IMG/VR virus record: IMGVR_UViG_2541047745_000010
Origin: a virus
Lineage: Duplodnaviria > Heunggongvirae > Uroviricota > Caudoviricetes
Strand: one strand, 5' to 3'
Length of the DNA: 44,068 nucleotides
The notes beneath the pieces were generated by a model that did not search any database, had not been told where the DNA came from, and saw only the letters and a list, made by a program, of their open reading frames with translations. The position numbers and the translations under genes were made by a program. This document shows positions 29,028 through 29,553 of the stretch, in pieces. Position 1 is the first letter of the stretch; each line of letters opens with the position of its first letter.

Positions 29028-29183
29028 TTACTCCTCAGGTTCGTAAGCTGTGAAGACAGCGACCTCCGTCTGGCCGGTTCGGATTCGTACCTCGCAGAGG
29101 TCCTTCCTCGTTACCAGTGCCGTCACTATGACGGTTAAACAGATGACAATCAGGGCGACTAACATCGCCTTTTGCTGCTTCAT
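29028..29183 (-). CDS. hok: Hok/Gef-family type I toxin (HokD/RelF-like)
   Basis: 51 aa MKQQKAMLVALIVICLTVIVTALVTRKDLCEVRIRTGQTEVAVFTAYEPEE; AAGGAG RBS; near-identical to recalled HokD. Confidence 0.85.
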   Translation of the reverse strand: MKQQKAMLVALIVICLTVIVTALVTRKDLCEVRIRTGQTEVAVFTAYEPEE

Positions 29184-29520
29184 AGCCTGCTTCTCCTTGC
29201 CTTTCGGCACGTAAGAGGCTAACCTACATTTGTGAGACATAGATTGGGCCTCAGATTAATGTTAAGCGTCTTGCAGGACGCGTAATGTTAACTGGGGCTT
29301 TTCTCTGTCTGCCTTACAGTGGCATGCCCGAGGCAGACAGCCTCAAGCACCCGCAGCAATCTTACCGACACCGATAAGAAAACGCTATTTTTTATTGCCA
29401 GCACCTTCTATCCAGGCTAATTTATCTGCGTCAGAACGGCGCAATGCGCTCGCCTGAGATACGTTTACTTGCCATGGTAACAACAGGTAACGGCAATTGT
29501 TGTTTCTGTTTTGTTTCCTT

Positions 29521-29553
29521 CAAAAACCCCGGACCATCAATCCGGGGTTTTTG
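29521..29553. terminator. bidirectional intrinsic terminator upstream of the hok locus
   Basis: Stem ccccgga-ccatcaa-tccgggg flanked by an A-run and uuuuuguuug. Confidence 0.65.

Follow-up and report, generated by a model that had tools for sequence, protein, structure and literature searches.

The 51-aa hok gene studied here lies in a window of 44,068 nucleotides, which is the whole stretch of DNA that was analysed. The question that it raises is whether it is a lone toxin gene or part of a larger module: hokD (relF) of the Qin prophage in Escherichia coli K-12 is the third gene of the relBEF operon, whereas the present locus has neither relB nor relE upstream. A sequence-only reading of this DNA had called the gene solitary and had left the choice between an active module and a silenced relic to further searches. 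Our analysis suggests that the region of about 28935..29387 is very probably a complete and operational hok/mok/sok type I toxin-antitoxin cassette of the hokD/hokW clade. The word solitary does not fit the locus, as the mok frame, the Sok gene and the fold-back pairing are all intact. The searches that the reading had proposed located a Sok promoter and terminator hairpin on the plus strand, a 12-bp pairing of the leader 5' end with the mRNA 3' end, and a match of 118 bits to the Rfam family RF01794. Once the leader is recognised, the puzzle of a hok gene without relBE goes away. The cassette is of a kind that is already known, widely distributed and annotated, and experiments have characterised its closest relative. 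The correct label is hence hok/mok/sok (hokW/hokD type) with a Sok RNA and not a lone toxin, a correction that matters little beyond annotation.

The toxin gene

The Hok product matches the Pfam family HOK_GEF (PF01848) over the entire profile (positions 1-42 of 42) and scores 83.6 bits (cut-off 22, E=7.2e-24). The Hok/Gef family comprises membrane toxins of ~50 aa that have a transmembrane helix near the N-terminus and a conserved Cys in the periplasm, and Cys30 of the present product aligns with the invariant position of the family. It is identical to K-12 HokD in 50 of 51 residues, V9I being the sole change, and to HokW in 46 of 51, while the identity to HokB is only 37%. The ATG is preceded by a Shine-Dalgarno sequence (AAGGAG, 9 nt upstream), and with the terminator stem behind the gene (Table 1) this bears out the earlier description of an intact, HokD-like frame with a good ribosome binding site and its own terminator. 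In RefSeq the identical DNA is annotated as a hokD CDS (WP_000813269.1) and has no ncRNA entry. The exact 701-bp sequence is present in three genomes, and E. coli AVS0790, AVS0196 and 12089 match the locus at 100% identity. A recent survey (bioRxiv 10.1101/2025.08.07.668861) found HokD to be toxic.

The codon of Tyr47 lies within a TadA A-to-I editing motif. The K-12 hokD gene, which has the same sequence at this site and likewise keeps the TACG motif, is reported to be edited at this Tyr (PMC5630033). Tyr47 aligns with Cys46 of HokB, and editing to Cys would give the disulfide pair of the family its second Cys. The predicted local fold does not place an obvious loop around the site. By analogy with K-12, TadA editing of Tyr47 may be an additional layer of control.

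Leader, mok frame and hok mRNA

The segment between the hok gene and the upstream hairpin, which had been taken as a leader of about 340 bp, is only in part a leader. Its 337 bp divide into a leader of 169 nt (29352..29184, minus strand), the putative hok/mok promoter, and a spacer of about 130 bp between this promoter and the hairpin (29388..29520). RF01794 matches 29352..29178 on the hok-sense strand over its full length (1-157) with 118.1 bits, the gathering score being 59. This family is named sok antitoxin, and it spans the region from the 5' end of the hok mRNA to near the hok start, so that it models the leader and not the antisense RNA. The true Sok gene lies on the strand opposite to the RF01794 match and overlaps just part of it. 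Annotation pipelines relying on RF01794 would put the antitoxin on the wrong strand.

A generic sigma-70 consensus scan of 28800..29700 placed neither the hok nor the Sok promoter above threshold, and both were therefore assigned via homology. The hok -10 box aligns with TATAAT of hokC, TAGGAT of hokB and TAGAAT of hokW, and stands 6-7 nt 5' of the conserved GGGTGC end; from this alignment we infer that 29359..29387 acts as the hok/mok promoter. Two plus-strand matches of the promoter scan at 28812..28894 are unrelated to hok or sok.

Table 1. Features of the hok locus, with positions numbered in the window and the basis of each assignment
Feature	Position	Strand	Basis and details
Intrinsic terminator of hok mRNA	28935..28960	-	Terminator scan; stem 28960..28941, then T-run
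Predicted full-length hok mRNA, about 415 nt	28938..29352	-	5' end from RF01794 start and family alignment; 3' end from terminator
fbi element	28966..28978	-	CCUCAACGCACCC; 49 nt 3' of hok stop; 12 bp and 1-nt bulge with tac
hok toxin gene, 51 aa	29028..29183	-	Intact ORF MKQQKAMLVALIVICLTVIVTALVTRKDLCEVRIRTGQTEVAVFTAYEPEE
mok frame, 70 codons	29028..29240	-	ORF list; ATG at 29240; in frame with and containing hok
Tyr47 codon within UACG, TadA A-to-I editing motif (Tyr to Cys)	29042..29045	-	TACG in 72/72 related loci
Sok promoter	29197..29225	+	-35 TTGCCT 29197..29202; 17-nt spacer; -10 TAACCT 29220..29225
Sok target hairpin in hok mRNA	29221..29245	-	MFE of full mRNA and local fold
Sok antisense RNA, 71 nt (predicted)	29232..29302	+	14-nt single-stranded 5' tail GUGAGACAUAGAUU, long terminator hairpin, U-tail
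ucb-like box AAGCCCC, mRNA positions 53-59	29294..29300	-	Identical in 72/72 loci; predicted to pair with the 5' end once the 3' end is trimmed
tac element, mRNA 5' end	29341..29352	-	GGGUGCUUGAGG; identical in 72/72 distinct related loci; pairs with fbi in MFE
hok/mok promoter (inferred)	29359..29387	-	-10 TAAGAT 29364..29359; weak -35 TAGCGT 29387..29382; 17-nt spacer; A-tract upstream
Hairpin terminator between nin-region genes and hok promoter	29521..29553		Plus-strand terminator scan; minus-strand fold

The mok frame is supported by its start, which aligns with the annotated starts of mokC and mokW, and by the 70-aa length of its product as in MokC and MokW. It matches PHROG 251, MokW-like host killing, with E=2e-32, and an in-frame mok of 70 codons is found in 65 of 72 related loci.

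The predicted hok mRNA folds with an MFE of -174.9 kcal/mol (z = -6.7 against shuffles). The 12 bp between tac and fbi are present in the MFE structure, this duplex having -21.3 kcal/mol, and the hok Shine-Dalgarno sequence is paired in the full-length molecule. When at least 45 nt were deleted in silico from the 3' end, nucleotides 1-8 re-paired with positions 53-59, i.e. the ucb-like box. This predicted re-pairing mirrors the activation model of plasmid R1.

The tac, ucb and fbi elements are invariant and thus uninformative for covariation in the close clade, and we used an alignment-free duplex comparison of distant loci instead. The comparison covered 35 loci of several Enterobacteriaceae, and in these the 5' 12-mer paired best with the 3' UTR of the same locus at a common offset, 45-56 nt after the stop. 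The hokB-type loci have compensatory double changes at the same offset, GGGUGCCUGAGA/UCUCAUGGCACCC and GGGCGCCUGAGA/UCUCAUGGCGCCC, in which U7-A is changed to C7-G, G12-C to A12-U and U4-A to C4-G. Copies known or likely to be disrupted give poor cognate duplexes, e.g. -13.3 kcal/mol for K-12 hokC with IS186 20 nt after its stop. As tac does not vary in the close clade, the covariation support is limited to the more distant hokB-type loci.

The 3' UTR of hok (28938..29019, minus strand) also gave a match to isrK of Salmonella Gifsy-1, with 29.8 bits, below the gathering score of 50. We rejected homology to isrK, as the aligned part amounts to two hairpins, which suggests a structural coincidence.

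Sok antisense RNA

By homology and fold, a Sok cis-antisense gene is judged to be present opposite the mok start. Over 29197..29226, the interval taken as the Sok promoter, the locus has 100% identity with the sokW promoter of phage 933W. In Sp5/933W, mutating this -10 box with primer YO-421 (TAGGTTA to CCGGCTC in the hok sense) abolished the antitoxin effect (PMC8621323). Three independent annotations, those of K-12 sokC, K-12 sokB and 933W sokW, agree on 29232 as the 5' end of the RNA, and the 3' end falls at 29302 by sokW and at up to 29308 by sokC and sokB. The predicted 71-nt RNA folds at -29.2 kcal/mol with its 5' tail free, and the 81-nt version has z = -6.2.

Within the Sok target hairpin of the hok mRNA lie the mok AUG (29240..29238) and, at 29236..29230, a loop of 7 nt (CUCACAA) whose CUCA is of the YUNR type. 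The 5' tail of Sok is complementary to this hairpin by construction.

Compared with sokC and sokB, the Sok hairpin is extended by 18 nt, a feature common to sokW and 66 of 72 related loci. Some IMG/VR loci, with 73% leader identity, had first been classed as other; they proved to have no different arrangement and to carry the full leader with a short Sok hairpin that lacks this extension.

The most variable part of the module is the segment of the Sok 5' recognition sequence and the mok start (29227..29249). Its nucleotide diversity is 0.28, about six-fold that of the flanking Sok hairpin and promoter (0.04-0.05), and 13 alleles of the segment occur in the 72 distinct loci whose toxin is at least 98% identical (loci L006-L100). 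E. coli ECMA0423 has three co-resident copies of the hokD/W type, all with different alleles, and the same holds for Shigella flexneri SFBU1023. The sample behind this variability is small and non-random, and the co-residence comes from these two genomes. We tentatively raise the idea, which we consider rather less probable than its opposite, that the segment could be a hypervariable specificity cassette under diversifying selection for mutually orthogonal antidotes. If so, the toxin of each prophage would be silenced by its own Sok alone, and the antitoxin of another prophage could not cover its loss. If the variability holds, co-resident prophages would make a simple natural model in which to study the orthogonality of antisense RNAs.

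Upstream spacer and prophage context

The hairpin upstream of the promoter had been described as a bidirectional terminator, which is a reasonable description. It is detected by the plus-strand terminator scan, and on the minus strand 29521..29553 reads as a CCCCGGA...UCCGGGG stem followed by UUUUUG (-23 kcal/mol). Counted against the complete E. coli genomes, the upstream spacer with its terminator is a rare arrangement: the region upstream of the -10 box (29361..29420), including the spacer arrangement, is fully covered in just 26 of 5426. For the spacer and hairpin (29353..29553), an Rfam scan of 28700..29750 by E-value gave nothing near gathering scores; the matches to STnc30, ncr1015 and Thr_leader were dismissed as weak, terminator-like chance matches far below these scores.

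Two reading frames on the minus strand lie upstream of the hairpin. A hydrophobic 27-aa ORF (MTWPEAFATVGMVMAVALVVYSICRWG, 29558..29641) overlaps the stop of a 274-aa ORF upstream (29638..30462), and a similar peptide C-terminus is encoded just 5' of the hokW promoter in 933W. The 27-aa ORF has no Pfam or PHROG match. The 274-aa ORF is intact and has mosaic PHROG matches, with no named Pfam function; for the same DNA in AVS0790 (L001 8739..9563), RefSeq/PGAP gives two partial pseudogene fragments, a partial DUF551 gene and a hypothetical one.

The host element is a Rac/lambda-like E. coli prophage. Its gene order runs from an early region with repressor and YdaT through replication and nin-type genes to hok, and downstream of hok follow NinB-like (DUF1367), HNH (DUF1364) and Q-like (DUF1133) genes and then the lysis and morphogenesis genes. 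The hok gene is co-directional with the early-right genes, and the terminator at 29521..29553 stands between them. RecE, RecT, RalR/RalA, xis and int are located at the right end, beside ryeA/sdsR and a yebY-like gene.

Several other features of the prophage were noted. A second type I toxin-antitoxin pair consists of a RalR-like ORF (41604..41837, plus strand) overlapped by a RalA sRNA (41836..42014, minus strand; RF02694, 219 bits). The right end (42119..44068) has an excisionase at 42119..42406 and an integrase that appears split into a 59-aa ORF (42372..42551) and a 278-aa ORF (42499..43335), possibly by a frameshift. This end directly adjoins the chromosomal ryeA/sdsR sRNA pair (43463..43607) and the yebY-like DUF2511 gene. 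A DicF sRNA (RF00039, 60.9 bits) at 37088..37139 on the plus strand lies in the early-left region beside a Rac-type kil, which indicates that the prophage mixes Qin-like and Rac-like modules.

Relation to K-12 hokD and distribution

The absence of relB and relE was confirmed, as tblastn with the K-12 proteins gave nothing significant over the whole 44-kb window (best E=0.07). The absence had been read as an anomaly, and the comparison with K-12 reverses this view. The two loci occupy the same relative position in a lambdoid prophage, from nin to Q, and they are near-identical from about 15 nt 5' of the hok ATG through the CDS, 3' UTR, fbi and terminator, the homology stopping at the T-run of the terminator. 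Upstream of this point K-12 carries the 3' end of relE, and relB-relE replace four elements that the present locus keeps, namely promoter, tac, mok start and sok. According to published work, relBE was inserted secondarily and thereby truncated an ancestral frame of 70 codons (PMC6379469). As the relE junction replaces the leader in K-12, it is K-12 hokD and not the present locus that is the truncated form. On these alignments, the cassette with the full leader is the ordinary form, and the comparison thereby clarifies K-12 hokD as its derivative.

The distribution of the two junctions is in line with the leader form being the usual one. The leader was found in 78 and relE in two of the 80 IMG/VR viral-contig loci with a Hok at least 98% identical. 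Of the 5426 complete E. coli genomes, 1165 cover the relE-hokD junction in full and up to 4022 cover at least 80% of the leader-hok junction, and the latter count may include some other hok paralogues at lower identity bands.

Near-identical hok loci of the E. coli type also occur in the records PP818812.1 (H81), L095, L106 and L112, whose labels are Actinobacillus phage vB_Apl-pPE4, a Veillonella parvula MAG, Acinetobacter idrijaensis and Xanthomonas pisi. Such records probably reflect contamination or mis-binned contigs rather than a real host range.

Proposed mechanism and alternative explanations

We propose that the cassette would work in the way of its family. The weak promoter would give the hok mRNA of about 415 nt, which is predicted to be compact, with tac paired to fbi and the hok Shine-Dalgarno sequence paired. 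Slow trimming of the 3' end would remove fbi, and the 5' end is then predicted to re-pair with the ucb-like box and to expose the mok start and the Sok target. This step of fbi removal and refolding is established for plasmid R1. As expected from knowledge of the family, Hok would be translated solely by coupling to the overlapping mok. A constitutive and short-lived Sok would bind the target loop and the mok start via its 14-nt tail, so that mok translation would be blocked and the duplex cleaved; a block and duplex cleavage of this type have been shown for sokW. When Sok synthesis stops, the stable hok mRNA would persist, and Hok would enter the inner membrane and kill or permeabilise the cell. 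Prophage induction, loss of the element and transcription shut-off by an infecting phage are possible triggers.

By analogy with hokW, the role of the cassette would most likely be to aid lysis and phage release after induction. Upon induction of the hokW prophage the sokW RNA vanishes and HokW accumulates about 1 h ahead of endolysin, and deletion of hokW-sokW delays growth arrest and halves phage release (PMC8621323). This induction phenotype may not transfer to the present locus, as hokW lies elsewhere in the genome of 933W. Prophage retention and abortive infection are possible other roles.

The likeliest of the alternatives is a silenced relic, i.e. a cassette that looks intact and is either unexpressed or devoid of killing activity like the chromosomal hok loci of K-12. 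The weak -35 box of hok, the failure of both promoters to pass the consensus scan and the terminator just upstream of the hok promoter would agree with it, as would the reported lack of post-segregational killing by the intact chromosomal hokA, hokB and hokC (Pedersen and Gerdes 1999). We nevertheless consider it improbable, because the lesions of the silenced K-12 copies are absent: tac, fbi, mok and hok are intact, and no IS element or frameshift was found in the cassette, unlike K-12 hokC with its IS186. The Sok promoter, the hok Shine-Dalgarno-AUG region, tac, ucb and fbi are near-invariant in the 72 distinct loci, and the close relative hokW-sokW is active. The diversity is 0.00-0.05 in tac, ucb, the Sok hairpin, the Sok promoter, the hok Shine-Dalgarno sequence and fbi, against 0.43 upstream of the -10 box, and regulatory boxes so nearly invariant amid varying neighbours argue for purifying selection. 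With the elements intact and the boxes constrained, we concluded that the locus is an operational type I toxin-antitoxin module; between the two outcomes left by the sequence-only reading, sequence integrity thus favours the active one.

Two further explanations appear highly implausible to us. The gene could be an orphan toxin without a cognate antitoxin RNA, controlled by transcription and terminators alone, as the hokD CDS without an ncRNA in RefSeq and the K-12 hokD without sok might suggest, and here the sequence speaks to the contrary, since the locus has its leader, its mok frame and a Sok gene whose promoter is of the validated type. It is equally hard to accept a Qin-like relBE-hokD operon as the ancestor of the locus, with a later loss of relBE. 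The match to K-12 HokD in all but one residue, the nearly identical 3' UTR and terminator and the shared nin-to-Q position would fit such a descent. A deletion of relBE would not, however, rebuild a 169-nt leader homologous to those of hokC, hokB and hokW, and the relE junction falls inside the former leader, 15 nt 5' of the hok ATG; almost all of the close relatives (78/80) have the leader, and it is relBE that is treated as the insertion (PMC6379469). The complete hok/mok/sok cassette hence remains our preferred reading.

Comparison with known systems

The locus shares with hok/sok of plasmid R1, hokC and hokB the arrangement of tac, ucb, mok, Sok target hairpin and Sok promoter within the leader, and in loci of these types fbi lies about 48 nt after the stop, as it does here. 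The mok frame is in frame with hok, as in K-12 hokC/mokC, whereas it is out of frame in plasmid R1. The hairpin of Sok exceeds those of sokC and sokB by 18 nt.

The closest named relative is hokW/mokW/sokW of the Stx2 phage 933W and the Sakai prophage Sp5 (AF125520), with 91.5% DNA identity over the module. Both loci have an in-frame mok of 70 codons, a Hok of 51 aa, an identical Sok promoter and the fbi box. The hokW-sokW pair is a functional type I toxin-antitoxin system, HokW localises to the inner membrane (Takada et al. 2021, PMC8621323), and the action of sokW depends partly on RNase III and Hfq. The two loci differ in the Hok C-terminus, which reads FTAYEPEE here against FVDYESEK in HokW, and in their place, as hokW sits after the tail genes in 933W and the present copy in the nin region. 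933W also lacks a terminator hairpin after fbi and a terminator upstream of the promoter. The Sok hairpin with its 18-nt extension is 98% identical to that of sokW, and the 5' recognition segment merely 70%; because of the latter, the present Sok and sokW are probably not interchangeable.
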